Shown piece after piece: positions 3,538 through 41,094 of a DNA stretch of 64,000 nt. The DNA is taken from the IMG/VR virus record IMGVR_UViG_3300028841_000078; one strand, written 5' to 3'. The notes under the pieces are model-generated. The model made no database searches. It was not told the DNA's origin and saw only the letters and a list, made by a program, of their open reading frames with translations. The first letter of the stretch is position 1, and every line of letters begins with the position of its first letter. A program made the translations under genes and the position numbers. Origin of the DNA: a virus.

Positions 3538-4173
3538 TTATTTAGCAGCGAACCACATCAAAATGCCTTGCGCGTCAAAAGTTGCCGCCCATGTGCCGTT
3601 TACCGTGGTCACGGCAGCGCCCTGATCGATGAGCGCGATCAGGGGGCGGGTCGCGTCCGTGCCGGGGCTGCGATCTACGATAGCGATATAGCGGGCGGTG
3701 ATGTTGCTCGATGTCCACGAAGGGTCATTGGCATCCAGCACAGTCACACCCTTACCCGCGCACTCCCATGTCACGCCTGAGTCGGTCACCTCGCCGCCAA
3801 TGGTGGTCGGCCAAGTGGGTTCAACCGATGCGTGCGAGGTGCCTGCGGTCTTGACTCGATACAAATACCCGTTGCCTGTGGTGGGTCGCACCACATAGTC
3901 AGCGGCATAAGCAGTATTAGCGACCCATGTCGTCGCCCATGAGTTCGCCGGGGTATAGGTGATGGTGCAGCCGGTCAGCAATTGCCCGTTGGTCGTGTAG
4001 CCATTGCCGTTAGCAACCTCGTTGGCGGAGATATCGTTCCAGTAATCATCCGTGTCGAGGTTGGGGGTGTAGCTTGTGGTCAACAAGGCTGCGTAGATTG
4101 TGTCGCTATTCCAGTCGATTTCTTTATTCCAAACTTGTGATTGAACCTTTCGATATTGAGTTGCTGTTGCCAT
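3538..4173 (-). CDS. virion protein with inserted carbohydrate-binding-like module
   Basis: 'WVANTAYAADYVVRPTTGNGYLYRVKTAGTS...EPTWPTTIG...DSGVTWEC' is a CBM5/12-like insert common in tail proteins. Confidence 0.6.
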   Translation of the reverse strand: MATATQYRKVQSQVWNKEIDWNSDTIYAALLTTSYTPNLDTDDYWNDISANEVANGNGYTTNGQLLTGCTITYTPANSWATTWVANTAYAADYVVRPTTGNGYLYRVKTAGTSHASVEPTWPTTIGGEVTDSGVTWECAGKGVTVLDANDPSWTSSNITARYIAIVDRSPGTDATRPLIALIDQGAAVTTVNGTWAATFDAQGILMWFAAK

Positions 4174-27979: not shown

Positions 27980-29020
27980 ATGACAAACCTTAATCAACGT
28001 GAGCTTGAAGCGTATGCAGCCCTGACCAAGTTCTGGGTTGCCACAAACTTTCCGCTTGAGATTCCAACCTTCAGACAGCTTTGTGATCGCAAACCAGAGC
28101 ACAGCGGTCCGCGCTTTGCAATCAAAGAGTGCTACATCTTTAGAACGCATGTGATTCGCATCCCGATTCAATGGAGTTATTACTCCGGCACCGGAATTAA
28201 GATGGCGCTCACCCATGACGCTGTGGTGTTCTACTACTATTTCAAGAGTGAAATAGATGACATGGCAGACGACTGGGAAACGTTCGCAACGGACAACATG
28301 CAGCCCCTTGTCGCGGTGATGTTCGACAACTCACCAGAAATTCATCAGTGGTTCTGCGATCAGCTTCCTGACATCTTGGCTGATAAAAATAACTTCGCGC
28401 TCTATCTTGCAATGTCGGCCACCGATCAGCAGGTTACCCCGCACAAGTTGTATTTACCAGCGGGAGAGTCAGGTCGATACACCGACGCAAACAAAATGTA
28501 TGCCGCTGGTGATATCCAGTCACTTTGGAAATTCATCAATCTTGTCTGGATTGATGTCAAAACACTTTCGGTGGTTAAAGGTGTTTATCCGGTTGTGAAT
28601 GCGGGTGGCGCACGCCCTTGGCAATACTGGAGCGATGGCGCACGGACAAAATACTACATGCTTGGCTCGGTGATGGATATCTCTGTGAACAAATCAGCCG
28701 GTCAAGCAATTCAATGGCTTCTGGCCAGCGGCACACTGACCGTAGACACGGCAGACATCAACGAACTTCGGCAAGTCACCGATATCAAAGAGACGATCAT
28801 CGAGCAGAAGAAGGTTGGCGGCACCGGCAACGGTCAATCTGTCACGCTCTACATGAGTCGTTTCATGGTGAACGACAAGCAAATTCGGTCATACCTGCGC
28901 GTCTCAAGTGAGGAGTGGTCGCTTGGCGGGGATGGCGACTACGACGAAACGACCTCGTTATTTAATGAAAGAGATGAGGCGGATATCGCCTACAAAAATA
29001 GTGCTTCACTTCTCGCGTAA
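27980..29020 (+). CDS. hypothetical protein
   Basis: 346-aa ORF with GGAG RBS. Confidence 0.7.
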   Translation: MTNLNQRELEAYAALTKFWVATNFPLEIPTFRQLCDRKPEHSGPRFAIKECYIFRTHVIRIPIQWSYYSGTGIKMALTHDAVVFYYYFKSEIDDMADDWETFATDNMQPLVAVMFDNSPEIHQWFCDQLPDILADKNNFALYLAMSATDQQVTPHKLYLPAGESGRYTDANKMYAAGDIQSLWKFINLVWIDVKTLSVVKGVYPVVNAGGARPWQYWSDGARTKYYMLGSVMDISVNKSAGQAIQWLLASGTLTVDTADINELRQVTDIKETIIEQKKVGGTGNGQSVTLYMSRFMVNDKQIRSYLRVSSEEWSLGGDGDYDETTSLFNERDEADIAYKNSASLLA

Positions 29021-29060: not shown

Positions 29061-29089
29061 TTGACATTTGTTACAAATGTCGCTAATGT
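29061..29089 (+). promoter_or_regulatory. sigma70 promoter of the Y-RNA array, overlapped by inverted repeat GACATTTG-tta-CAAATGTC
   Basis: TTGACA-N17-TAATGT; inverted repeat at 29063-29081. Confidence 0.7.
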
Positions 29090-29100
29090 ATCGCGGGGGT

Positions 29101-29168
29101 AACGCAGTGGTGTAGACGGTGGTTACTTCACATCTACAAAAGGCCCATCGTCGTCCGTTCCCTGTGTT
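29101..29168 (+). ncRNA. Y-RNA-like unit 1 (minimal)
   Basis: Terminal stem AACGCAG/CTGTGTT; conserved TGGTGTA...GTTCC internal loop; helix GACGGTG/CATCGTC; GTTACTTC. Confidence 0.7.
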
Positions 29169-29180
29169 CGTTCGTCTGTG

Positions 29181-29245
29181 AATTGGTGGTGTAGATTGCG
29201 GTTACTTCTTTGGTTGAAAGCCCGCAGTCGCCTAGTTCCCCAATT
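29181..29245 (+). ncRNA. Y-RNA-like unit 2 (minimal)
   Basis: AATTGG/CCAATT; TGGTGTA...GTTCC; GATTGCG/CGCAGTC; GTTACTTC. Confidence 0.7.
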
Positions 29246-29257
29246 GCTTTGTCTCTG

Positions 29258-29347
29258 ACTGGTGGTGAATAAATCGAGTTCTTCGACTCATTATCGGGCT
29301 GGCGAGCAGTGCTCGTTGGCGTGACGCGATTTAGAACGTTCCCCAGT
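29258..29347 (+). ncRNA. Y-RNA-like unit 3 (anticodon-arm-like CAU hairpin)
   Basis: ACTGG/CCAGT; TGGTGAA...GTTCC; TAAATCG/CGATTTA; TTCGA-CTCATTA-TCGGG hairpin. Confidence 0.7.
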
Positions 29348-29358
29348 GTCTGGTTCGT

Positions 29359-29496
29359 AAATCGGTGGTGTATAAGGCGAGTTCTTCCTATGTTAAAGGG
29401 CTGGTCGGAGGTTCAAGTCCTTCCCCGTCCATTCGTGGACGGGTAGCTCAGGTGGTTAGAGCAGCTTGTAACGCGCTTTAGAATGTTCCCCGATTT
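29359..29496 (+). ncRNA. yrlA: YrlA-like Y RNA with circularly permuted tRNA domain
   Basis: AAATCGG/CCGATTT; T arm GGAGG-TTCAAGT-CCTTC; acceptor CCCGTCCA-TTCG-TGGACGGG; D arm GCTC-AGGTGGTTA-GAGC; next to TROVE gene. Confidence 0.85.
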
Positions 29497-29510: not shown

Positions 29511-29545
29511 GGGCAGCAGGTATACCTGCTGCCCTTTTTGTTTTT
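29511..29545 (+). terminator. intrinsic terminator between the Y-RNA array and the Ro60 gene
   Basis: GGGCAGCAGG-TATA-CCTGCTGCCC followed by TTTTTGTTTTT. Confidence 0.85.
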
Positions 29546-29561
29546 CACACACACATAAATC

Positions 29562-30941
29562 ATGAAAAAGCCAATCGATCAGCTTGCCGGTGGGTTCGGG
29601 GCAGTAGCGGCCATCCAAACCCCAGAACAAACGCTTCGCCGCTTAGTGATGGCATCGCTCCTATGGGAGAAGTTGGCCTATGAATCGGGCGAATACAACG
29701 CCCTTGCCATCAAAGAGGCCATCTCGAAAGTGCCCGCGCCACAGGTGGCGGCAATTGCGATTGAGGCCCGCGAAAAGCAGCACCTGCGCCACACCCCGCT
29801 CTTCATCGCCGCCCAGATGTGCAAGTTGCCGACGCATCGCCCGTTTGTGGGCGGTGTGCTTGAGAAGATCTGCACTCGCCCCGACATGTTGGGCGACTTT
29901 ATGGCGCTGTATCAGATGGACAACAAAGACGCGCCCATCGCCAAGCAGGTCAAGACCGGCCTAGCCAAAGCCTTTGTCAAGTTCAGCGAGTATCAGCTTC
30001 GCAAATACGCCTCGCGTCAGGGCCAAGTCACCCTGCGTGATGTGATGTTTTTGGTGCATCCCAATCCGATTGAGAAGTGGCAGGTTGAGGCATTCAAGCA
30101 ACTGGCAAACAAAGAACTACCCCCCGCTGAAACGTGGGAGGTCATGCTGAGTTCAGGGGCAGACAAGTGCCGCACGTTCACTCAGTTGGTGCAAGGCGAC
30201 AAGCTGGGCGGCATGGCGCTATTACGCAACCTGCGCGGCATGAAAGAGGCCGGGGTGGATAAGCGCGTGATTCTGGGCGGGCTTGAACGCATGAAAACGG
30301 GCTACCTCTTGCCGATGAACTTTCTCTCCGCCGCCAAGAACGCGCCGGACTTTAGCGGTGCAATCGAACAGGCCATGTATCGCTGCTATGGCACCCAAGA
30401 GAAGCTGCCCGGAACGACCGTGTTCGCGGTGGACCGGTCGGGCAGCATGAATCAGCGCATCAGCGCACGGTCGGAGAATCAGCGCCTCGATGTGGCAATT
30501 GCGATGGCGATTCTGGCGCGGGAACGCTGCGAGAACCCGATCATCTACGCCACGGCAGGTCATGCCGGTCACGCCACAGTCCGGGTTCATCAGCGCGGCT
30601 TCGGATTGGCTGAGGAAATCAAGAACGCGCCCATCGGTGGCGGCGGTATCTATACCCGCCAGTGCCTTGAGTTCATTAGAAAGGACTTGGGCGACACCCA
30701 TGTTGACCGAGTGATCGTGTTCAGTGACAGCCAAGATTGCGACACCAGCCACAAGCTGCCCGCGCCGTTTGGCACCACGAATTACATCGTGGATGTATCG
30801 GCTCACAGCAAGGGCATCAATTACGGCCAGCTTTGGACCGCCGAAATCAGCGGCTGGTCTGATCACTTTCTCGACTACATTTTTGCGCTGGAAGGCATCA
30901 ACACAGTTGTCGATGACACGGGTGACGAAATCGAAGGCTAG
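29562..30941 (+). CDS. rsr: Ro60/Rsr-family TROVE domain RNA-binding protein with vWA domain
   Basis: LRHTPLF, VKTGLAKAFVKFSEYQLRKY, TLRDVMFLVHP, TWEVMLS, LGGMALLRNLR, MIDAS-like DRSGSM, VIVFSDSQ. Confidence 0.9.
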   Translation: MKKPIDQLAGGFGAVAAIQTPEQTLRRLVMASLLWEKLAYESGEYNALAIKEAISKVPAPQVAAIAIEAREKQHLRHTPLFIAAQMCKLPTHRPFVGGVLEKICTRPDMLGDFMALYQMDNKDAPIAKQVKTGLAKAFVKFSEYQLRKYASRQGQVTLRDVMFLVHPNPIEKWQVEAFKQLANKELPPAETWEVMLSSGADKCRTFTQLVQGDKLGGMALLRNLRGMKEAGVDKRVILGGLERMKTGYLLPMNFLSAAKNAPDFSGAIEQAMYRCYGTQEKLPGTTVFAVDRSGSMNQRISARSENQRLDVAIAMAILARERCENPIIYATAGHAGHATVRVHQRGFGLAEEIKNAPIGGGGIYTRQCLEFIRKDLGDTHVDRVIVFSDSQDCDTSHKLPAPFGTTNYIVDVSAHSKGINYGQLWTAEISGWSDHFLDYIFALEGINTVVDDTGDEIEG

Positions 30942-32706: not shown

Positions 32707-34491
32707 ATGGCGGCAATCGTCGTTGGTGAGGAGCATCTATTCTCTCAAAAGGCCAAGGGGCTGGTGCGGCTGAACAAACACCGCAGCGACACCCTGCCCG
32801 TTGCCTTTATCCCCGGCGGGTCGCACCGTCCGGTGATTTACGGAGAGATGGAGAAGTTCTTCACCCAACACAAGCATCCTGTTTTGTTTGTGCGGCCCTG
32901 CCCTGAATCGCCCAATCACGGCGGCGAGGTGGCGGGCTTTCAGTCTGAGGCTGTCAAGCGCGAGGCATCCATTCAGCAGGTCTGGAAGGTTCGCCAAGCA
33001 ATTGCCAAGAAGAATCTGCGGGCCGACATTGTGGTGATGCCCTATGTCCACGCCGATCTGTCCTGCGTGGTCGCACCGGGCAAATACTACGTGTGGGGAC
33101 TGGGCAACAACGGAGTCACCGCCGGGACAAGCGAGACGGTGGTGATTCCGATCAACCCCAAGAACCCCGGCCATTACTTTCTGTCCGCCGCCGGGTATGA
33201 CCCCAAGACCGTCGAGGTTGAGTTTGTGCGCGACAAGGCCAATCGAAAGGTCTACTGTGTCCAGATTCGTGCCGCCTCCGCCCACTTGGACATCGACCCC
33301 GCGCCCGAAGGAGCGTTGCCGGGGTTTGTCCCCGGCGGCAAGATGACGGTCGTCAAAACTTATCAAGTGAAAGACCTGAATGATCTTGGCGAACTGGAGT
33401 TTTTGAAGGGAACCGACACCGCAGGGCTATTAGTCATTCAGCCCACCGGCTCAATGCTCAGTCACGCGGCAGCGCACTGTCGCGGAGCCAAGATCGCATT
33501 TTGCATCGGGAAACCGGACATCAAGCCCGGAAGTGTCGTGGCCGAACCCGCGTCCGGTTGGCTGGTGGTCGGGGATGTCGAGGCCAAGCCGTATGACCCG
33601 GCCACCTACTGGGCGGACTTTCGGCGCGGCTTTGATGCGCCCCTCATCTGGGAGAGCATGAAACTAGGCACGTTCTTTCATCAGTGGGCCACCAAGCCCC
33701 TAGGCAGTCCAAATCGAGTCGCCTATCTGGGCGGTCGCTTTTGCAAATGGCTGGTGCAAGCGGGCATCACCGCCTTTTGTGGCGAGTCGCGTCACACCGA
33801 TTGTGTCCACAACAAAGGCGACTGGGGCGGGTATCAGATTCACCACCACTATGTCAACATGACCGGAGAACATGAACCACAACGCGCCACGATCTTAAAG
33901 ATGCTGCGCGACAGTCACGCGACCCTGCCCGATCTGTTGAAAGTCGCCCAATGGACCCACCAGATGTTTAGTCTCAGTTGGATGCACTCAATGGGTGGCT
34001 ACAAGTGGCAGATGTGCGCGGCATCGGCCATCAACTCGATTGAGGCGATTATGAAAGGCGACTGCAGCGCGGCCATCACCGCCCTCAACGCGCTTGAGAA
34101 CGGCGTTCACAACGGCGGGAAGCTGTTCAACAAGTTTCATGAGTCGCTGAAGTGGCTGGATATCGCCACAGCCGGGGTCAGCATGGACACAGGCGAAACC
34201 GGGCTTTCATCCGAGATCGCAGAGGTGGCCTTGCTCACCAAGTTCAACGACACCCCGGTAAAAGAATCTTCTATCCAATGGGCGACGACAGCGGCCTTGG
34301 CCGATATCGTCATCCCCAAGATGGGCAATCCTAAAGCGGTGCAGCCATCGGTTACATCGTCGGCGACGTTTACCGACAACGACTTCGCCCAGAAGTTCAA
34401 CGCAGGCGCGATGGCGGCGATGAACAAATCTCAACCAGAGGTTCCACCTAAAAAATCAGCAATGGTCATTCGACCAAAAAAGGGAATATGA
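32707..34491 (+). CDS. PEP-synthase/RPH-type dikinase: ATP-grasp, His-swivel domain, unknown C-domain
   Basis: KAKGLVRL..LPV, LFVRP, GLGNNGVTAG, VEVEF..VYCVQIRA (PPDK_N-like); GSMLSHAAAHCR phospho-His motif. Confidence 0.75.
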   Translation: MAAIVVGEEHLFSQKAKGLVRLNKHRSDTLPVAFIPGGSHRPVIYGEMEKFFTQHKHPVLFVRPCPESPNHGGEVAGFQSEAVKREASIQQVWKVRQAIAKKNLRADIVVMPYVHADLSCVVAPGKYYVWGLGNNGVTAGTSETVVIPINPKNPGHYFLSAAGYDPKTVEVEFVRDKANRKVYCVQIRAASAHLDIDPAPEGALPGFVPGGKMTVVKTYQVKDLNDLGELEFLKGTDTAGLLVIQPTGSMLSHAAAHCRGAKIAFCIGKPDIKPGSVVAEPASGWLVVGDVEAKPYDPATYWADFRRGFDAPLIWESMKLGTFFHQWATKPLGSPNRVAYLGGRFCKWLVQAGITAFCGESRHTDCVHNKGDWGGYQIHHHYVNMTGEHEPQRATILKMLRDSHATLPDLLKVAQWTHQMFSLSWMHSMGGYKWQMCAASAINSIEAIMKGDCSAAITALNALENGVHNGGKLFNKFHESLKWLDIATAGVSMDTGETGLSSEIAEVALLTKFNDTPVKESSIQWATTAALADIVIPKMGNPKAVQPSVTSSATFTDNDFAQKFNAGAMAAMNKSQPEVPPKKSAMVIRPKKGI

Positions 34492-35021
34492 ACACACAAC
34501 CAACCAAAATCGAAAATCAGAACTCCGCTCCAATCTTCACAATGAAGTGGTGGCGTGGCATCTTTATCACCAATGTCACCTGTGGCGGTCGTCAACCCAT
34601 GACGGACTTTGAACATCGAACCGATAAGCCCGATCTGGTCATCGGTGCAGCGGGGCTTGCCAAAGAGACGTACGCCTTTGGGGGCGGGTTTGACTTCATC
34701 AATCGCACCGCCAGACGCGCCGTGTATATCAACTGGCAAGACTTCGGGGTGCCCGACATGGACAAGTCATGGTGGGAGAACCTTTACGAATCCATCGAGC
34801 AGATCAAGCCCCGCCACATTCATGTGCAGTGCATGGGCGGGATGGGCAGGACGGGCACGATCTTGACGATTCTGCTCATCTTGTCGCGCCGGGATAAGAA
34901 GGACGCATTCAAGACGGTGGGCAGCGCGATTCAGTACATCCGGGCGCATGGCAATCCTCATGCGGTCGAAACCCCGGCCCAACGCCAGTACATCGCCGAC
35001 ATGACAGGAACCCAACTATGA
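34488..35021 (+). CDS. CX5R protein-tyrosine/dual-specificity-type phosphatase 1
   Basis: WQDFGVP acid loop; HVQCMGGMGRTGT; AVETPAQ. Confidence 0.85.
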   Translation: MNTQPTKIENQNSAPIFTMKWWRGIFITNVTCGGRQPMTDFEHRTDKPDLVIGAAGLAKETYAFGGGFDFINRTARRAVYINWQDFGVPDMDKSWWENLYESIEQIKPRHIHVQCMGGMGRTGTILTILLILSRRDKKDAFKTVGSAIQYIRAHGNPHAVETPAQRQYIADMTGTQL

Positions 35022-36028
35022 GCAGCCTTGTCAACGGCGATGATGCCGATGACTTCTTTTTTGGCAACGCCACAGGCGACCATGAGAAGTCAGAACCCAC
35101 ATCCACGCCCCTGCCCTTATTTACAGGGCACAAACACGACTCAGGGGTGAACTCAGCCTACACCTTAAGCTGGAGCGGCGGCAACAAAACCAAAGTGACC
35201 GGCGGCGGCAAGATGTATGCGGGGGACTTTAAGCACGACAAGACGATTGACTTTCTCATCTCGGCGGTCGCGCTTGAACCCCAAGCCCACTATGCCATCG
35301 GCGCAGATCTATCCTGCGCCGATGGCATTAGCGGCGTTCGCCATGCCGTGCTGCTCGATTGGCCGGACATGCAGGTGCCAAAAGTGCCGCTGAATTTTTG
35401 GGTCAATCTGATCAAAGACCTATCCACGATTCGGCCACAACACTTACATGTGCAGTGCGCGGGCGGCAACGGGCGCACCGGGACCACCTTAGCCATTCTG
35501 TTGCAGCTTGCAACCGGCGGCTACCCCTCCGTCGAGGTGTTGGTCAAGTCGCTTCGCGCAGGGTACCGTCAGGCGGCGGTCGAAACCAAATCCCAGTTTG
35601 ATTACATTGCTTACGTCTGCAACATCCCGGTCGGCGATGTGAAAGACATGATTCGGAAAGACCCGGTTGTGGTGAGTACGGCCACAAAGAAGCCGGTCAA
35701 AACCCCGCCGCTGGAAGGGCTTAAGAAGTCGGGCACAACCACGACCATTCAACTCTCGCCTGAGAAAGAGAAGATTCGCAAATCGAAATACTTTCTACAG
35801 TTCGATGCCGACTTCACGAGCAATCTACCGATTGACCTAGCGGTGGCTTACTACGAAATCTGGGAGAGCATCGGTAAGCCCATTCTGATCAAGAAGGGCA
35901 ACGTGCCCTATGCCGCCAAGGTGCCCACTGACCGGGTATATCCAGAACACATCCACCTTTACAAGCTGAGTGAGGACAAGCAGTTTTACCTGTCCGTGGC
36001 CCTCGCTCATGTGAACGAGAAGAAATGA
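35018..36028 (+). CDS. CX5R phosphatase 2 with C-terminal extension
   Basis: WPDMQVP; HVQCAGGNGRTGT; AVETKSQ. Confidence 0.85.
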   Translation: MSSLVNGDDADDFFFGNATGDHEKSEPTSTPLPLFTGHKHDSGVNSAYTLSWSGGNKTKVTGGGKMYAGDFKHDKTIDFLISAVALEPQAHYAIGADLSCADGISGVRHAVLLDWPDMQVPKVPLNFWVNLIKDLSTIRPQHLHVQCAGGNGRTGTTLAILLQLATGGYPSVEVLVKSLRAGYRQAAVETKSQFDYIAYVCNIPVGDVKDMIRKDPVVVSTATKKPVKTPPLEGLKKSGTTTTIQLSPEKEKIRKSKYFLQFDADFTSNLPIDLAVAYYEIWESIGKPILIKKGNVPYAAKVPTDRVYPEHIHLYKLSEDKQFYLSVALAHVNEKK

Positions 36029-38133
36029 ACCCAAACAAGAAGCCATCCTCAGTCAAGCCCCACATGAACACCGCCAAAGATTACGCTGTTAAACCCACCA
36101 GTGTCTCCTCCTCTTGGCATGAGGATGGAGACTTGTTCAAGTGTGTTGCCAAGGTTCGCACCCTGTCTGGCGATACCCTGCGAATGCAGATCGTGGACCT
36201 GTCTGCTGAGTTCAACATCCCGGTCGATGTCGATATCTCCTCGCTCATCACCAATATCTGTGAGGGCAATCCGGGCAAGATGCTGTCATCGAACGTGGCC
36301 GGGTCAAACAAGAAGTATTACCCCTGCTTACTGGCCGTGAACAAAAGCAAGAACTTCGTGATGCGAATTCAGTGCAATCCAGTCAATCGGCCTTATGGCC
36401 TGAGCATCGCCTTCGTGGATGCCGATGTGATCAAGCTGATTCTGGACCAAATCAAAGGCATCAATCAAAGCAAACTCACCGCCAAGGGCTATGAGGGTGA
36501 GGGTGAGGGCGATGATAAGCCACCCACCTTTACCGGCCCATCGCTGGCCGCACAGATTCAAACAAATCCAGACCCGGCAACACCGGTGCACATCATTGTT
36601 AAGACCCAAATCGTCAACTCGACCATTGTCCTAGCCACCAAGATACGCCACCTGCTTGAGTGTCTGCATGAGGGCGTGGCGATGGACGTTCAGCAGGACG
36701 CGATGAATCAGGCGTATGTTGCGGCCAATCATCTAGTGAATAAGCTGACCGAGCACAATCTCTTTTTGTCAGACCGCGACAACATCAAGAGCTTTGCCTA
36801 CTTCGTCAGCGACAACTTTAATACCTTTGTCGGCAACAAGATCGAACCGATTCTGTCCCGCGCCCAGACCGCGCTGGTGTCAGCGGAGCATGTCGCCAGC
36901 CAGTATTCAGCCTACATCACCCCTGACATCAACGATATTTTGGTCCAGCACATCAAGACCTACACATGGGTCAATATGTTGGACGCGAGTTTAAGTCTAT
37001 ATCAACATCACCATGACACCGGCTCCGCCGCTCATATCGCAGCGGCCAGTCAAGCATTTCAATACGCCACCAAAATCGCTAGTCACATCGATGTGACACC
37101 GGCCTACGCTCACGAACTCAAGGCAGACCTGTTGACTGAAAACCCGATCAACCCGGACTATGCCAAGTATTTAAGTGGCAAGGTCAAATCGACCCTGCAT
37201 CAGTTTCACAGCGCCAATGGCAAGCTGATTCTCATGGTGGGCAAAGAGGTTGCCCAAGCCCTCTCGGTGGTAGCGCTGCTTGAGTTGGCGATGGGAATTC
37301 AAGGCCCGGACTGCGCCGATCACCTCATCAAAGAAGCAATCACGGCGCACAACAAGATCATTCTTGGACTGCCCGATGTGGTCCCGGCGCTCATGAAACT
37401 GCTTGGCGGGTCATCCCCGCTATCGATCTATGTCAACAATGGCAGCGCCCTTGATGTTAAAAACGCCTACCTAAATCTGGCACGTGATCTTGTCTACAAA
37501 CACATCTTCCGGCCCATTGGCCCAACCTATACCGGAAACGTGTTGCTAGAACATGAAGAAGAAACGCTGGCAAAGATCGGGCTGCTCATGCTTTACGGGA
37601 TGCACTCCGCACCTGAGACGATGAAAGGCTATGCTCAGTACATTATCACCCTGATCAGGCCGCTGCTGCTTGCCATCAAAGAGGATGGCAAACCGGTGTC
37701 GTATGGCTATCACCTGTCGCTGATGCGGGCGATATCGGCCTGTTTAACCGTGCCCAAGCACAGTTTACAGATGACCGGCAAGGCCGAGATGTTCGCCGGA
37801 ATTAGCCCCGGCGAGATGGATGTAAAGATCACCCTAAGCTCGATTCAGTTTGAAAGCACATTCGGGGTCATCGTGGCGGATATGGCCTTCTTGTATCTGA
37901 CCGCAACACGGCACCTGCCGGTGGGCGCGGCCACCCTGCAAAAGATCGCTATTCAGGCCAAGTCTCTAGCCAATCACCCACTCAAGCACATCTTCCTTGG
38001 CTATGCCACCCGGCTTCTGGGAATCGCCAAATACATCAACGAGAATGAGCAGGGCGCACTGATCACAGACGTTCAAGACAAGATTGCCGACACCGCAGAC
38101 AATGCCTTACAAATGATTCTAGCCTCACTGTGA
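36025..38133 (+). CDS. 702-aa hypothetical protein (helical C-terminal half)
   Basis: Long ORF, ATGA-coupled; no recognisable motif. Confidence 0.75.
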   Translation: MNPNKKPSSVKPHMNTAKDYAVKPTSVSSSWHEDGDLFKCVAKVRTLSGDTLRMQIVDLSAEFNIPVDVDISSLITNICEGNPGKMLSSNVAGSNKKYYPCLLAVNKSKNFVMRIQCNPVNRPYGLSIAFVDADVIKLILDQIKGINQSKLTAKGYEGEGEGDDKPPTFTGPSLAAQIQTNPDPATPVHIIVKTQIVNSTIVLATKIRHLLECLHEGVAMDVQQDAMNQAYVAANHLVNKLTEHNLFLSDRDNIKSFAYFVSDNFNTFVGNKIEPILSRAQTALVSAEHVASQYSAYITPDINDILVQHIKTYTWVNMLDASLSLYQHHHDTGSAAHIAAASQAFQYATKIASHIDVTPAYAHELKADLLTENPINPDYAKYLSGKVKSTLHQFHSANGKLILMVGKEVAQALSVVALLELAMGIQGPDCADHLIKEAITAHNKIILGLPDVVPALMKLLGGSSPLSIYVNNGSALDVKNAYLNLARDLVYKHIFRPIGPTYTGNVLLEHEEETLAKIGLLMLYGMHSAPETMKGYAQYIITLIRPLLLAIKEDGKPVSYGYHLSLMRAISACLTVPKHSLQMTGKAEMFAGISPGEMDVKITLSSIQFESTFGVIVADMAFLYLTATRHLPVGAATLQKIAIQAKSLANHPLKHIFLGYATRLLGIAKYINENEQGALITDVQDKIADTADNALQMILASL

Positions 38134-38293: not shown

Positions 38294-39625
38294 ATGACAA
38301 CTTTGAACGTTTCCCACCTCGCCGGGTATAAGGGCGAGGAGATGGACACCCAAGAAATCGGCAGCTTCGGGGTGCCTTACCTGCAATTCTTCAACCCCGC
38401 CACCTTGCACGTCGATACCGAGATCGAGAAGGGTGGGTGGGGAGTCAAGACCGGCGGCGACGGTGGGTATACCCCGCCGAACTTTGGCCCAACCCAGACG
38501 ATTACCCATCAGGGCAACCGCACCTCCAACATGGTCGTGACGAACAAGCCGCTGGAGATGGCAATCATCTGGTATTCCGGCCCCTACACCCGTTGGTGGC
38601 CAGACGGGGACCGCAGCAAAGGCCCGCGCATCTTTCATCAGGACTTCCTGTTTCAGAACATGCACAAGGCCCAAGGCGGTCGCGCTGAAACCGGGGTGAG
38701 CCTGTTTGTCGCGCTCAAGTGCGACGAGCAGCGCGACATCTTGGAGATTCTGGGCAAGACCTATGCGGTCGATGACTGGCTGCGTATCCTCAGCTTGACC
38801 CGCCGCCGCGTGGCTGCGGTGGCCGACTTTCTGATCAAGGCGGGCGAGTTGCCCAAGGGCTTTGTGCTGCCGATCTATTCCCAGTGGATAAAGATCGGGG
38901 TGGGCGGGTTCAGCACCGAGGGGACCGGTGATAAGACCAGCCTGATCGCGCACCCGGAGATCGAGTGGCCGGGGCTTGAAACCCCGCTCAAGGCGGTGTG
39001 GACCGCCGCCGCGCAGCGCAAGCCGGGGAAGGCGATGATCTGTGACGGGGACAAGCAATGGTCACAGATCAAAGATGTCCTCAAGATCGACGACCTGATC
39101 GCCTGTGTGCCCTCCGATCAAGACATGGCCCGCTTTGATGAGCAGCGCAAGTTCTTGGTCGAGAAGCACAAGACGGTCGGCTTTCGCGCCATCGCCGCGC
39201 CGACTCCGGAGAACATCAGCAAGGCCAAGGGTGAATACATGGCCCTGCCGAGCGGCAACACGGACGGTGAGCCGCCAATGCCGGATGAGCCGGGTGAACC
39301 TGTTGGCCCAACCGGACCCGCCGCCACCGCCATCATCGACAGCACCCCCGCCCCGGCAAAACAAATCGCCTACGACGAGAACGGCAATGAGGTTGTCACC
39401 TCACCGAGCCTAGGCGAGGAGGTCACGGCCAACTCCAAGGTTGCCAGCGACTTCTTCAACTTTGTCAAAAAGAGTTTCGATGTGGCCCCTCCAAAAGTCT
39501 TTCAGATTCTGGGCGTGAAGTCGCTGACGAACGTCAAGATTAGCCAAGACGAGGCGCTGGCCCTGATCGAGCGGTTCGTCAACGGTGACATCGTTGATAA
39601 AGCGGTCGGCACGATCACCTACTAA
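38294..39625 (+). CDS. hypothetical protein (possibly replication/recombination related)
   Basis: AAGGA RBS; first gene after a class-B promoter. Confidence 0.7.
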   Translation: MTTLNVSHLAGYKGEEMDTQEIGSFGVPYLQFFNPATLHVDTEIEKGGWGVKTGGDGGYTPPNFGPTQTITHQGNRTSNMVVTNKPLEMAIIWYSGPYTRWWPDGDRSKGPRIFHQDFLFQNMHKAQGGRAETGVSLFVALKCDEQRDILEILGKTYAVDDWLRILSLTRRRVAAVADFLIKAGELPKGFVLPIYSQWIKIGVGGFSTEGTGDKTSLIAHPEIEWPGLETPLKAVWTAAAQRKPGKAMICDGDKQWSQIKDVLKIDDLIACVPSDQDMARFDEQRKFLVEKHKTVGFRAIAAPTPENISKAKGEYMALPSGNTDGEPPMPDEPGEPVGPTGPAATAIIDSTPAPAKQIAYDENGNEVVTSPSLGEEVTANSKVASDFFNFVKKSFDVAPPKVFQILGVKSLTNVKISQDEALALIERFVNGDIVDKAVGTITY

Positions 39626-39628
39626 CCC

Positions 39629-40135
39629 ATGAACACAGACAACTACGTGTCTGTGCTTCACCTTTATCAAGACCTGCCGCCGCTGGACATCTGTCTCACG
39701 GCGGCGGGTCAGATGAGGCAAGACAACCCATCAAGTAACGCATTCATCAAAGCGCATGAGTTCTTTATTGAACTGTGCGCCTCAGATGCAAACATTCAAT
39801 ATGATGCAGCAGGCATTCTTGCCGCGCACACGCTTGGTCAAAGTCATCTCCCCGATGATGTGATCGCCCTGCTTGAACGAGTTAAGGCCATGAAAACCTC
39901 GGCCTTTGTTCGCTCAGATGACACCCATGTATTCATTCGGCGCAGCGCTTCGACCCACGAAGGGTATTACAACGTGAGCGCCCACGAGTGCGAGTGCAAT
40001 GGGTATCAATACCGCAAGGAGCAGTTCAGCGACTTTATCTGTGTTCACATCGCCATCGTGCGTGTCATCGAGCGTGCCCTCATCGATATGACCCTTCACT
40101 CTTTTGCAAAAGGAGTCCCCGTATGGCAAACGTAA
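39629..40135 (+). CDS. SWIM zinc-finger protein
   Basis: CECNGYQYR...ICVHI (CxC-Xn-CxH). Confidence 0.75.
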   Translation: MNTDNYVSVLHLYQDLPPLDICLTAAGQMRQDNPSSNAFIKAHEFFIELCASDANIQYDAAGILAAHTLGQSHLPDDVIALLERVKAMKTSAFVRSDDTHVFIRRSASTHEGYYNVSAHECECNGYQYRKEQFSDFICVHIAIVRVIERALIDMTLHSFAKGVPVWQT

Positions 40136-41094
40136 ATGCGGTAAAGAAAGCCCAAGAGAACAAGGAGAAAGGCTTGACCGTCTTTCAACCCGCGCAAGGG
40201 CTTGTCTCTCAGTTGACCTCCCTGAATGTCACGATTGACACGGTTGGGGTCAACCTCCCCGACACCCTGACCCTGAAAGATTGTTCTGGGGTGATGGAAT
40301 CGATTGCGAACTTTCAAGAGACGTTCGCCGGAACCTATCGCTGGGCGGTCGGTGATATCGTCCTGTATGCCCAGAACAAGTTCGGTGATACAAAGTATTC
40401 GCAAGTTCTGGCCCATACCAAGATGGACGCGGGTGATGCCCGTAACTGCGTCTGGGTCAGCCGCGCCATTCCCCCGGCTTACCGAGTCGAAGGGCTGTCG
40501 TGGACCCATCACCGAGTGGTGGCAACCGACGACATCCCCGATGTCTCAGACAAGCGGGCGCTGCTGCTTGAGGCGCGTGACAACAACATGTCGGTGTCTC
40601 AGTTCAGAATCTACGTCGAGAGCAAGATCAGCAAAAAGGCCAAGCCCAAGTCCGCCCCGGCCAGCGAACCGGTTGCTAGTGTCTCATCGACCCCGCCGCC
40701 GCCAAGCTACTCCGTGACGAGCTTTCAGGCGGTCTGCAAGTGGGCGGAGAATGCCGGTTCACAGCCGGAGATTCAATACCTAATCGACACCTTGACCAAG
40801 AAGGTCACCGACATTCAGTATCTGGCCGGTCTAACCATGATGGCCGATGCCCAGATCGAGGCGCTTGGCAAACTCATCGGCATGGAGGGCATCCCGTCCG
40901 CCAACGCCGAGGACATCGAGGATGACCCCGCCACCAACGCCATCGCCGCGCTGGAATCGATTGGGGTTCAGGTCTACACCCCGAACGGTAAGCAGACGGT
41001 CGAAACAGACGATGACGGTGTGATCGTTGACACCACCGAGTATGTCCCTATCGATGAGGTCGAGACGACCGACGAAAGCGATACCGGTTATTGA
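40123..41094 (+). CDS. LmbU-like DNA-binding protein
   Basis: YRWAVGDIVLYAQNKFGDTKY...RNCVWVSR...LSWTHHRVVA; AGGAG RBS. Confidence 0.65.
   Translation: MANVNAVKKAQENKEKGLTVFQPAQGLVSQLTSLNVTIDTVGVNLPDTLTLKDCSGVMESIANFQETFAGTYRWAVGDIVLYAQNKFGDTKYSQVLAHTKMDAGDARNCVWVSRAIPPAYRVEGLSWTHHRVVATDDIPDVSDKRALLLEARDNNMSVSQFRIYVESKISKKAKPKSAPASEPVASVSSTPPPPSYSVTSFQAVCKWAENAGSQPEIQYLIDTLTKKVTDIQYLAGLTMMADAQIEALGKLIGMEGIPSANAEDIEDDPATNAIAALESIGVQVYTPNGKQTVETDDDGVIVDTTEYVPIDEVETTDESDTGY

Follow-up and report, generated by a model that had tools for sequence, protein, structure and literature searches.

From its sequence, the last of four Y-RNA-like units that precede a phage rsr gene is very probably a Y RNA of the YrlA class, shaped as a circularly permuted, complete look-alike of a tRNA whose anticodon arm is split. 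The unit lies in a window of 64,000 nt, the whole stretch of DNA that was analyzed (IMG/VR record IMGVR_UViG_3300028841_000078). This contig is phage-like, and near-identical DNA is found in bioreactor, wastewater, and activated-sludge runs; the wastewater runs labeled "RNA-Seq" are probably DNA and were kept as contigs. All four units occupy a 540-nt gap between the ORFs at 27980-29020 and 29562-30941, and repeats and folds reveal a common scaffold composed of a terminal stem, an internal loop (5′ GGUG, 3′ GUUCC), and an inner helix. The region is organized as follows:

29061-29089, + strand: putative promoter of the Y-RNA array, TTGACA-17 nt-TAATGT, read by eye
29101-29168, + strand: Y-RNA-like unit 1, short, without a tRNA module; terminal stem, internal loop (5′ GGUG..., 3′ GUUCC), and inner helix as in the other units
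29181-29245, + strand: Y-RNA-like unit 2, short, without a tRNA module; same scaffold, conserved in the relatives L001 and L003
29258-29347, + strand: Y-RNA-like unit 3, the scaffold, a 4-bp hairpin, and then a long hairpin that replaces the tRNA body of unit 4; from direct repeats with unit 4, fold, and sequence reading
29359-29496, + strand: unit 4, the whole YrlA-type RNA, last of the four; partial Rfam YrlA match and folds
29511-29545, + strand: strong intrinsic terminator closing the array; 10-bp GC-rich stem and T run
29562-30941, + strand: rsr, a Ro60 orthologue (TROVE and vWA), 459 aa; Pfam, PHROG, and homologues

The rsr ORF matches Pfam TROVE (1e-14), VWA_2 weakly, and PHROG 850 "RNA-binding protein" (1.5e-23), and its protein has 2917 homologues, many of them named TROVE or Ro. 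It starts 66 nt past the end of unit 4 on the same strand, and unit 4 is predicted to be transcribed together with the three shorter Y-RNA-like units upstream of it. The TTGACA/TAATGT pair is the putative promoter of the array; a TTGACA-17-TATNGT layout is also present in both L001 and L003, and a consensus promoter scan made no call at 29061-29089.

The initial annotation had read unit 4 as a YrlA-type Y RNA beside Ro60, and the TROVE gene together with a match to the Rfam YrlA model (RF02553) upholds this. At a relaxed threshold, the match covers 29400-29465 (39.4 bits, E 4.5e-7, model positions 24-84) and spans the variable loop, T arm, sealed stem, UA, and D arm; it is a local match only and does not reach the gathering score of 69 of the full model. 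Relatives and elements from cultured phages score 33-52 bits against the same model, whose consensus structure lacks the hairpin discussed below. Unit 4 has the permuted core of the class, that is, a T arm, a loop-closed acceptor-like stem, UA, and a D arm, and it lies near a Ro60/TROVE gene on the same strand. A bulged terminal stem is found in all four units, and the Ro60-binding motif GNCGAAN0-1G is only approximate in unit 4 (GGCGAG); phage members carry GGUGG...GUUACUUC and a 3′ GUUCC instead of the GNCGAA motif. Searches for conventional genes gave no result: ARAGORN reports no tRNA on native unit 4 or in the whole window, Rfam at gathering thresholds returns nothing for the whole window, and the Rfam tRNA model is blank on native unit 4. 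A standard-order cloverleaf with free acceptor ends and a 3′ CCA is likewise absent from unit 4, where UUCG joins the acceptor ends.

Within unit 4, the initial annotation had delimited an arm TCCT/ATGTTAA/AGGG (29386-29400), a T arm GGAGG-TTCAAGT-CCTTC (29407-29423), acceptor strands CCCGTCCA (29424-29431) and TGGACGGG (29436-29443) around TTCG (29432-29435), TA (29444-29445), and a D arm GCTC-AGGTGGTTA-GAGC (29446-29462). Each of these segments is present at these positions, and the division is complete except for C29401, which falls between the "arm" and the "variable loop TGGTC" and was given to neither. The picture of a complete tRNA look-alike, circularly permuted and with its acceptor stem sealed by a loop, is thus borne out, and the anticodon-like hairpin is real and tRNA-Asn-like, its UGUUAA corresponding to positions 33-38. 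In tRNA numbering, we delimit the parts of unit 4 as follows:

29359-29383, + strand: 5′ strand of the Ro60-binding stem (basal 29359-29365 and 29367-29368, internal loop, helix 29373-29379, GUU 29381-29383)
29387-29399, + strand: distal anticodon arm, CCU (nt 29-31), loop AUGUUAA (nt 32-38, anticodon GUU), and AGG (nt 39-41); from covariation
29400-29401, + strand: nt 42-43, proximal split anticodon stem, paired with C29465 and G29464 (nt 28 and 27); from the closing pairs
29402-29406, + strand: variable loop UGGUC (nt 44-48), with C29406 as nt 48; from Levitt covariation
29407-29423, + strand: T arm, 5 bp, loop UUCAAGU; from the Rfam match and coordinate check
29424-29443, + strand: acceptor-like stem, 8 bp, sealed by UUCG (29432-29435); from coordinate check and fold
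29444-29463, + strand: U8 A9, D arm (4 bp, loop AGGUGGUUA), and A26; from the Rfam match and coordinate check
29464-29496, + strand: nt 27-28, followed by the 3′ strand of the Ro60 stem (linker, AAC 29470-29472, helix 29474-29480, GUUCC internal loop, basal stem 29488-29496); from folds

Read from 5′ to 3′, the order is therefore anticodon hairpin, nt 42-43, variable loop, T arm, sealed stem, U8 A9, D arm, A26, and nt 27-28. The 5′ segment 29359-29383 pairs with 29470-29496 in all constrained and free folds, and its motif GAGUUCUUC fits the phage consensus GUUACUUC. The split anticodon stem consists of G29464-C29401 (27-43), C29465-G29400 (28-42), C29387-G29399 (29-41), C29388-G29398 (30-40), and U29389-A29397 (31-39), and encloses the 7-nt loop A32 U33 G34 U35 U36 A37 A38, so that unit 4 agrees with a tRNA in its anticodon stem of 5 bp and its 7-nt loop with U33 and R37. 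The nucleotides used for tertiary contacts in tRNAs are in place as well (U8, A14, G18 G19, G53-C61, U54 U55 C56, and G15-C48). The initial annotation had opened the tRNA between the D and anticodon arms, and here the comparative data lead to a different topology: nt 26 (A29463) and the pairs 27-43 and 28-42 precede the branch, so the Ro60 stem would exit from the 5′ strand of the anticodon stem, at the step from nt 28 to nt 29, splitting this stem 2+3. A fourth arm pair that had been drawn, U29386-G29400, competes with the better-supported C29465-G29400 and was dropped.

Two syntenic phage contigs, L001 and L003, carry the same kind of array, and their Rsr proteins are 80% and 75% identical to that of the window. 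L003 has two tRNA-like units, of which its unit 4 pairs CCU with AGG around the loop AUGCUAA and its unit 3 pairs UCA with UGA around CUUAAUC, while L001 pairs CCA with UGG around an 8-nt loop. Relative to unit 4 of the window, pairs 29-41 and 31-39 have changed on both sides with the hairpin retained, and the nucleotides 3′ of the hairpin covary with those that follow A26 (GC/GC in the window, AC/GU in L003 unit 3, CC/GG in L001). Covariation in the hairpin and covariation in the closing pairs thus fit one and the same model of a split anticodon stem. As the closest relatives have GCU or an 8-nt loop, strict mimicry of tRNA-Asn is disfavored.

To survey phages more widely, we searched IMG/VR with a DNA pattern made of the GUUACUUC motif, the T loop, and the start of the D arm, leaving the intervening region unconstrained, and obtained at least 120 loci. 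From all loci, 112 distinct phage elements were parsed, mostly among the matches listed in IMG/VR, and the counts of elements given here and below are to be read with this scope. The closing pairs 27-43 and 28-42 are found in 103 of the 112, with five to six pair types each, and 70 of these 103 form all three hairpin pairs in register with a 7-nt loop. Shifting the register by 1-3 nt leaves 4-9 such cases, and when the 5′ strands are exchanged among the sequences, the number averages 10.6 and is at most 22. Of the 112 elements, 73 combine a 2+3 stem with a 7-nt loop (7.8 in shuffles), and 88 have a 5-bp split stem of any partition (1+4, 2+3, or 3+2) with a loop of this length (14.4 in shuffles), while all other loop lengths from 3 to 11 nt stay at shuffle level. 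The hairpin is built from 18 different 3-bp stem combinations across phages. As judged by this comparison, the arm is under selection in the phage elements, and a complete split anticodon arm is widespread in phage YrlA-like RNAs.

The loops of these 88 elements, again mostly among the matches listed, bear the signature of tRNA anticodon loops, with Y32 in 72, U33 in 81, R37 in 85, and A38 in 80. They also follow the 36/37 rule of real tRNAs, G36 being followed by G37 in 22/23 cases and U36 by A37 in 52/54. Thirty-one different anticodons are represented, none of them a stop anticodon; the commonest are GUU (15), UGU (9), GCU (7), UGG (7), UUU (6), and CUU (5), and where a phage has two such units, their anticodons differ. 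The Levitt pair, 15-48, shows covariation, being G-C in 85 and A-U in 25 of the 112 elements. As a rule, the acceptor stem is sealed; it measures 5-10 bp, shows no preference for 7, and is capped by GNRA, UUCG, or longer loops. An rsr gene is present in 72 of the 99 pattern-derived loci among the matches listed, where 76/76 elements lie on the rsr strand, mostly upstream and at a median distance of 335 nt. We class the anatomy, the rsr linkage, the covariation, and the tRNA-type loop signature across phages as demonstrated rather than inferred.

Other searches yielded little. An initial scan of IMG/VR for a protein pattern of the single Rsr returned nothing, a loose DNA pattern (GTGGTGT..GAGTTCTTC) run on IMG/VR and metagenomes gave nearly all chance matches and one true locus (L021), a scan of genome contigs gave two loci only, and tblastn against plasmids a few bacterial loci. 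None of the few parsable YrlAs on the bacterial contigs (L427-L430 and L005) has the hairpin.

Folding of the single sequence does not favor the hairpin, and we therefore rely on comparison. The fold of the initial annotation has −44.4 kcal/mol, as compared with −44.8 for a YrlA-type fold that joins the loop GUU to AAC 29470-29472 and −43.5 for a hybrid fold; the free minimum, which likewise pairs the loop GUU with AAC 29470-29472, has −48.4, and the hairpin pairs reach a probability of ~0.10. This free-energy minimum speaks for a plain YrlA fold that has no anticodon arm and forms a single long stem with a kink, like that of the Salmonella crystal structure, joining UGUUA 29391-29395 to UAACG 29469-29473 and GGGCU 29398-29402 to AGCUU 29463-29467. 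Some elements do have a plain closing stem of 4-5 bp without the hairpin (L021, L270, element 1 of Xanthomonas phage Sopo, and Streptomyces phage LuckySocke). We nevertheless regard this fold as unlikely for unit 4: it needs GUUA loops, whereas the hairpin is kept in 88 of the 112 elements with 31 anticodons, mostly among the matches listed; in L003 unit 4, where the loop reads GCU, the middle C faces A in the rival pairing with AAC, a mismatch that breaks it; and the hairpin alone shows compensatory changes (U-A to A-U at 31-39, C-G to U-A at 29-41). The split-arm model is thus retained, with one limit on its interpretation: given that a GUUA loop can pair alternatively, the excess of GUU among the phage loops could reflect pairing and not mimicry. 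A further observation is that the loop GUUA repeats the GUU of the conserved GUUAC-type 5′ motif 10 nt upstream (29381-29396), and that both copies of GUU can pair with AAC 29470-29472 (29469-29473). This repeat may be a coincidence or a two-state switch.

We then compared unit 4 with known YrlA RNAs. The Salmonella YrlA domain, whose crystal structure is available (6CU1; Wang 2018, bioRxiv 10.1101/312249), has no anticodon loop, and its equivalent of the anticodon stem is kinked. Like unit 4, Salmonella Typhimurium YrlA lies beside rsr, ends in the Ro60 stem, has the tertiary nucleotides and the Levitt covariation, and follows the permuted order of T arm, loop-sealed acceptor stem, U8 A9, and D arm. 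The two differ in that the Salmonella stem equivalent runs on into the Ro60 stem, whereas in unit 4 it is at this place that a 3-bp hairpin carrying a tRNA-type loop of 7 nt branches off; in addition, unit 4 carries the motif GAGUUCUUC/GUUACUUC and not GNCGAA, and it is located upstream of rsr in a four-unit array. The phage hairpin thus appears to branch where Salmonella YrlA kinks. An elbow formed by the T and D loops and modification by host tRNA enzymes had also been proposed for unit 4; both are sound expectations, but they belong to known biology rather than to new inference, as the elbow is known and TruB- and DusA-dependent modification shown for Salmonella YrlA, the latter in the main text of Chen 2014 (PMC4201824).

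The same main text (Chen 2014, PMC4201824) reports that 254 bacteria and 22 phages have YrlA RNAs next to Ro60, and Fig. 1 there marks a less conserved stem-loop just upstream of the YrlA T arm as "V," the tRNA variable arm. This stem-loop and the hairpin of unit 4 are probably the same physical element; that main text describes neither the closing pairs 27-43/28-42 nor the fixed 7-nt loop nor the anticodon-loop signature. One could accordingly take the hairpin for a spacer helix that mimics no anticodon and take the Ro60 stem itself for the equivalent of the anticodon stem, as the course of the Salmonella RNA, whose stem equivalent leads straight into the Ro60 stem, would suggest. We judge this very unlikely, for the two pairs closing the four-way core exclude the hairpin, which topologically therefore does not sit between nt 43 and the T stem, the variable loop of 4-5 nt exists separately and already has a covarying Levitt partner, and the fixed 7-nt loop, U33, R37, A38, and the 36/37 rule are features of anticodon loops, not of variable arms. 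By topology and loop signature, then, the hairpin reads as an anticodon arm.

Another question is whether unit 4 might be a genuine permuted or split tRNA-Asn gene, its UUCG loop being opened by RNase P and a 3′ processing enzyme, CCA being added, and the product decoding. A precedent is Mycobacterium smegmatis YrlA, whose looped 7-bp stem is cut by RNase P and gains CCA in vivo according to the main text of Chen 2014 (PMC4201824). This RNA resembles unit 4 as a tRNA-like Y RNA with a looped acceptor stem and differs from it in that its 7-bp stem is opened, as compared with 8 bp and a UUCG cap in unit 4 and no fixed length in the phage family. For unit 4, too, a 7-bp stem with A29431 as discriminator can be drawn, and the window is devoid of tRNA genes by ARAGORN. 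Even so, a decoding tRNA is highly improbable: stems in the family range over 5-10 bp without preference for 7 and have GNRA or UUCG caps, the Ro60 stem would stay attached inside the anticodon stem, and relatives swap the anticodon or have 8-nt loops. With sealed stems of 5-10 bp as the rule, the initial annotation's view that the RNA cannot be aminoacylated is reasonable, but cleavage and CCA tailing of the M. smegmatis RNA make it unsafe as an absolute. ARAGORN, run as had been suggested on re-permuted sequence, calls tRNA-Asn(gtt) in 7/7 constructs of unit 4; the test is weak and does not discriminate for the arm, as 105/112 permuted elements (mostly among the matches listed) are called tRNAs and 101/112 still are when the 13-nt arm is shuffled, so the case for the arm rests on comparison instead. 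Permutation as such occurs in the permuted tRNA genes of Cyanidioschyzon merolae and in two-piece permuted tmRNA, which encode the 3′ half of the cloverleaf before the 5′ half and are processed into working tRNA or tmRNA. Unlike these, unit 4, which we continue to read as a Y RNA, keeps its original ends sealed, and its new ends are extended into a protein-binding stem.

An anticodon arm has been mentioned before for one Y RNA: in the main text of Chen 2014 (PMC4201824), it is referred to only for Deinococcus radiodurans Yrn1, which is judged there to have evolved independently. As in unit 4, a potential "anticodon arm" with a 5-bp stem can be drawn in Yrn1, but its loop has 6 nt, the orientation of the arms is different, and there is no evident D arm. 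The Ro60 of Thermus phage phiLo also has Y-RNA-like genes (Yrl1 and Yrl2) upstream, as here, and a complex of phiLo Ro60 and its Y RNAs with host PNPase has been shown (PMC12135203). Unlike for unit 4, neither a tRNA-like domain nor an anticodon is mentioned for Yrl1 and Yrl2 (PMC12135203). An anticodon arm on YrlA was not found in the searchable literature. The RNA class is known, and, as far as the readable literature extends, the split anticodon arm of its phage members is undescribed.

Cultured phages provide further elements. Xanthomonas phage Sopo has the arm CGA[CUGUUAA]UCG, and Rhizobium phage RHph_Y65 has an arm of the same kind with a 3+2 split. In Gordonia phage VanLee (L431, NC_073474.1), a deposited tRNA-Arg(tct) at 904-975 overlaps a YrlA-type element at 900-1060 that has CGC[CUUCUAA]GCG and a sealed acceptor stem; evidently, the tRNA finder took a strand of the Ro60 stem as a pseudo acceptor and D arm. 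For annotation, this means that at least one such element (that of VanLee) has been deposited as an ordinary tRNA gene, and some "phage tRNAs" adjoining Ro genes may be parts of Y RNAs.

Several loci depart from the common form. At 1004-1060 of L262, an arm CCA[AUGUUAA]UGG, a T arm, and a D arm are present without an acceptor-like stem, 3 nt separating the T and D arms. In Bacteroides phage crAss001 (L426, MH675552.1), an unannotated stretch of 900 nt downstream of a TROVE gene holds unpermuted tRNA-shaped genes at 3645-3788 and about 3900-4040, in which a ~70-nt Y-RNA-type module (GGUG...GUUACUUC, GUUCC) interrupts the 5′ strand of the anticodon stem. With introns allowed, ARAGORN reads them as tRNA-Asn(gtt) i(31,70) and tRNA-Leu(caa) i(25,53), and the Rfam tRNA model scores 46.6 bits over 144 nt. 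The insertion point is that of the permuted form, giving a second topology with free acceptor ends. A Chloroflexota MAG contig (L429 1-2889) has two tandem TROVE genes with a 390-nt gap between them, which contains two weak YrlA matches (34.5 and 36.4 bits; threshold 69) without the hairpin. In unit 3 of the window, finally, a single 10-bp hairpin (29296-29318) replaces the T, acceptor, and D core, and the 4-bp hairpin has the 7-nt loop CUCAUUA, with U33 and CAU, yet U37; this unit looks like a unit-4-type RNA with the tRNA body swapped out.

How might such an RNA act? By analogy with Salmonella YrlA, unit 4 would form an L shape and be modified by host TruB and Dus enzymes. Ro60 would grip the stem, and the tRNA module would present its elbow and an authentic-looking, tRNA-Asn-like anticodon loop to a host factor that reads tRNAs, the likeliest target being an anticodon-loop nuclease or a loop-modifying enzyme. 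The part then played by the RNA could be that of a competitor, a decoy, or a tether to Ro60 and an exonuclease. We propose such a role towards an anticodon-loop nuclease or modifying enzyme tentatively, as one possibility among others. The 36/37 rule serves decoding and modification and is needless in an RNA that does not decode, which we read as a sign that real tRNA loops were copied. YrlA's tRNA-like domain has been proposed before as a competitive inhibitor of an anticodon nuclease (Hughes 2020). The neighboring genes, two PTP-type phosphatases and several without assignment, offer no link to RNA repair or nucleases.

It is tempting to go further, on more speculative ground, and to picture phage Ro60 particles whose Y RNA panels show host-tRNA anticodon loops (Asn, Thr, Ser, Lys, Pro, Leu, and others) on sealed, non-chargeable bodies, acting as Ro60-tethered decoys, traps, or sensors for host defense nucleases or for enzymes that read anticodon loops; the anticodons on display would then reflect the tRNA-targeting defenses met, and the crAss001 form would represent this device in a second topology. 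Should an authentic-looking arm be present in most phage members, with anticodons that vary between phages and between the units of one phage, the candidate partners narrow to anticodon nucleases, Tgt, the t6A and m1G37 enzymes, and the anticodon-binding domains of synthetases. In the published structure and text, YrlA is presented as a tRNA mimic that lacks an anticodon loop; the arm would be a handle on the partner, and if this is true, the competitive-inhibitor idea (Hughes 2020) becomes directly testable by loop swaps.

Some further observations concern the surroundings of the array. Between 29050 and 29600, strain variants on wastewater and sludge contigs differ in unit 4 only at 29484 (T>A, in the internal loop) and show about twenty differences in units 2 and 3. 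A blastn search with 6 kb around the locus against INPHARED gave no match. Family searches of the neighboring ORFs recognized no RNA ligase, kinase, or nuclease gene adjoining rsr, and PDB sequence searches of the ORFs at 32707-34491 and 36025-38133 returned nothing. A faint Sua5/TsaC (t6A) match of the ORF at 38294-39625 was rejected; the protein resembles DUF5895 / Pam3 gp34 phage proteins and has no PDB relative. Downstream of rsr, two adjacent ORFs resemble protein-tyrosine/dual-specificity phosphatases (34488-36028; Pfam Y_phosphatase 8.5e-10 and 6.2e-9) and are preceded by three ORFs without a family match. The ORF at 39988-41094 resembles an LmbU-family regulator (model match of 8.8e-13, below cut-off).
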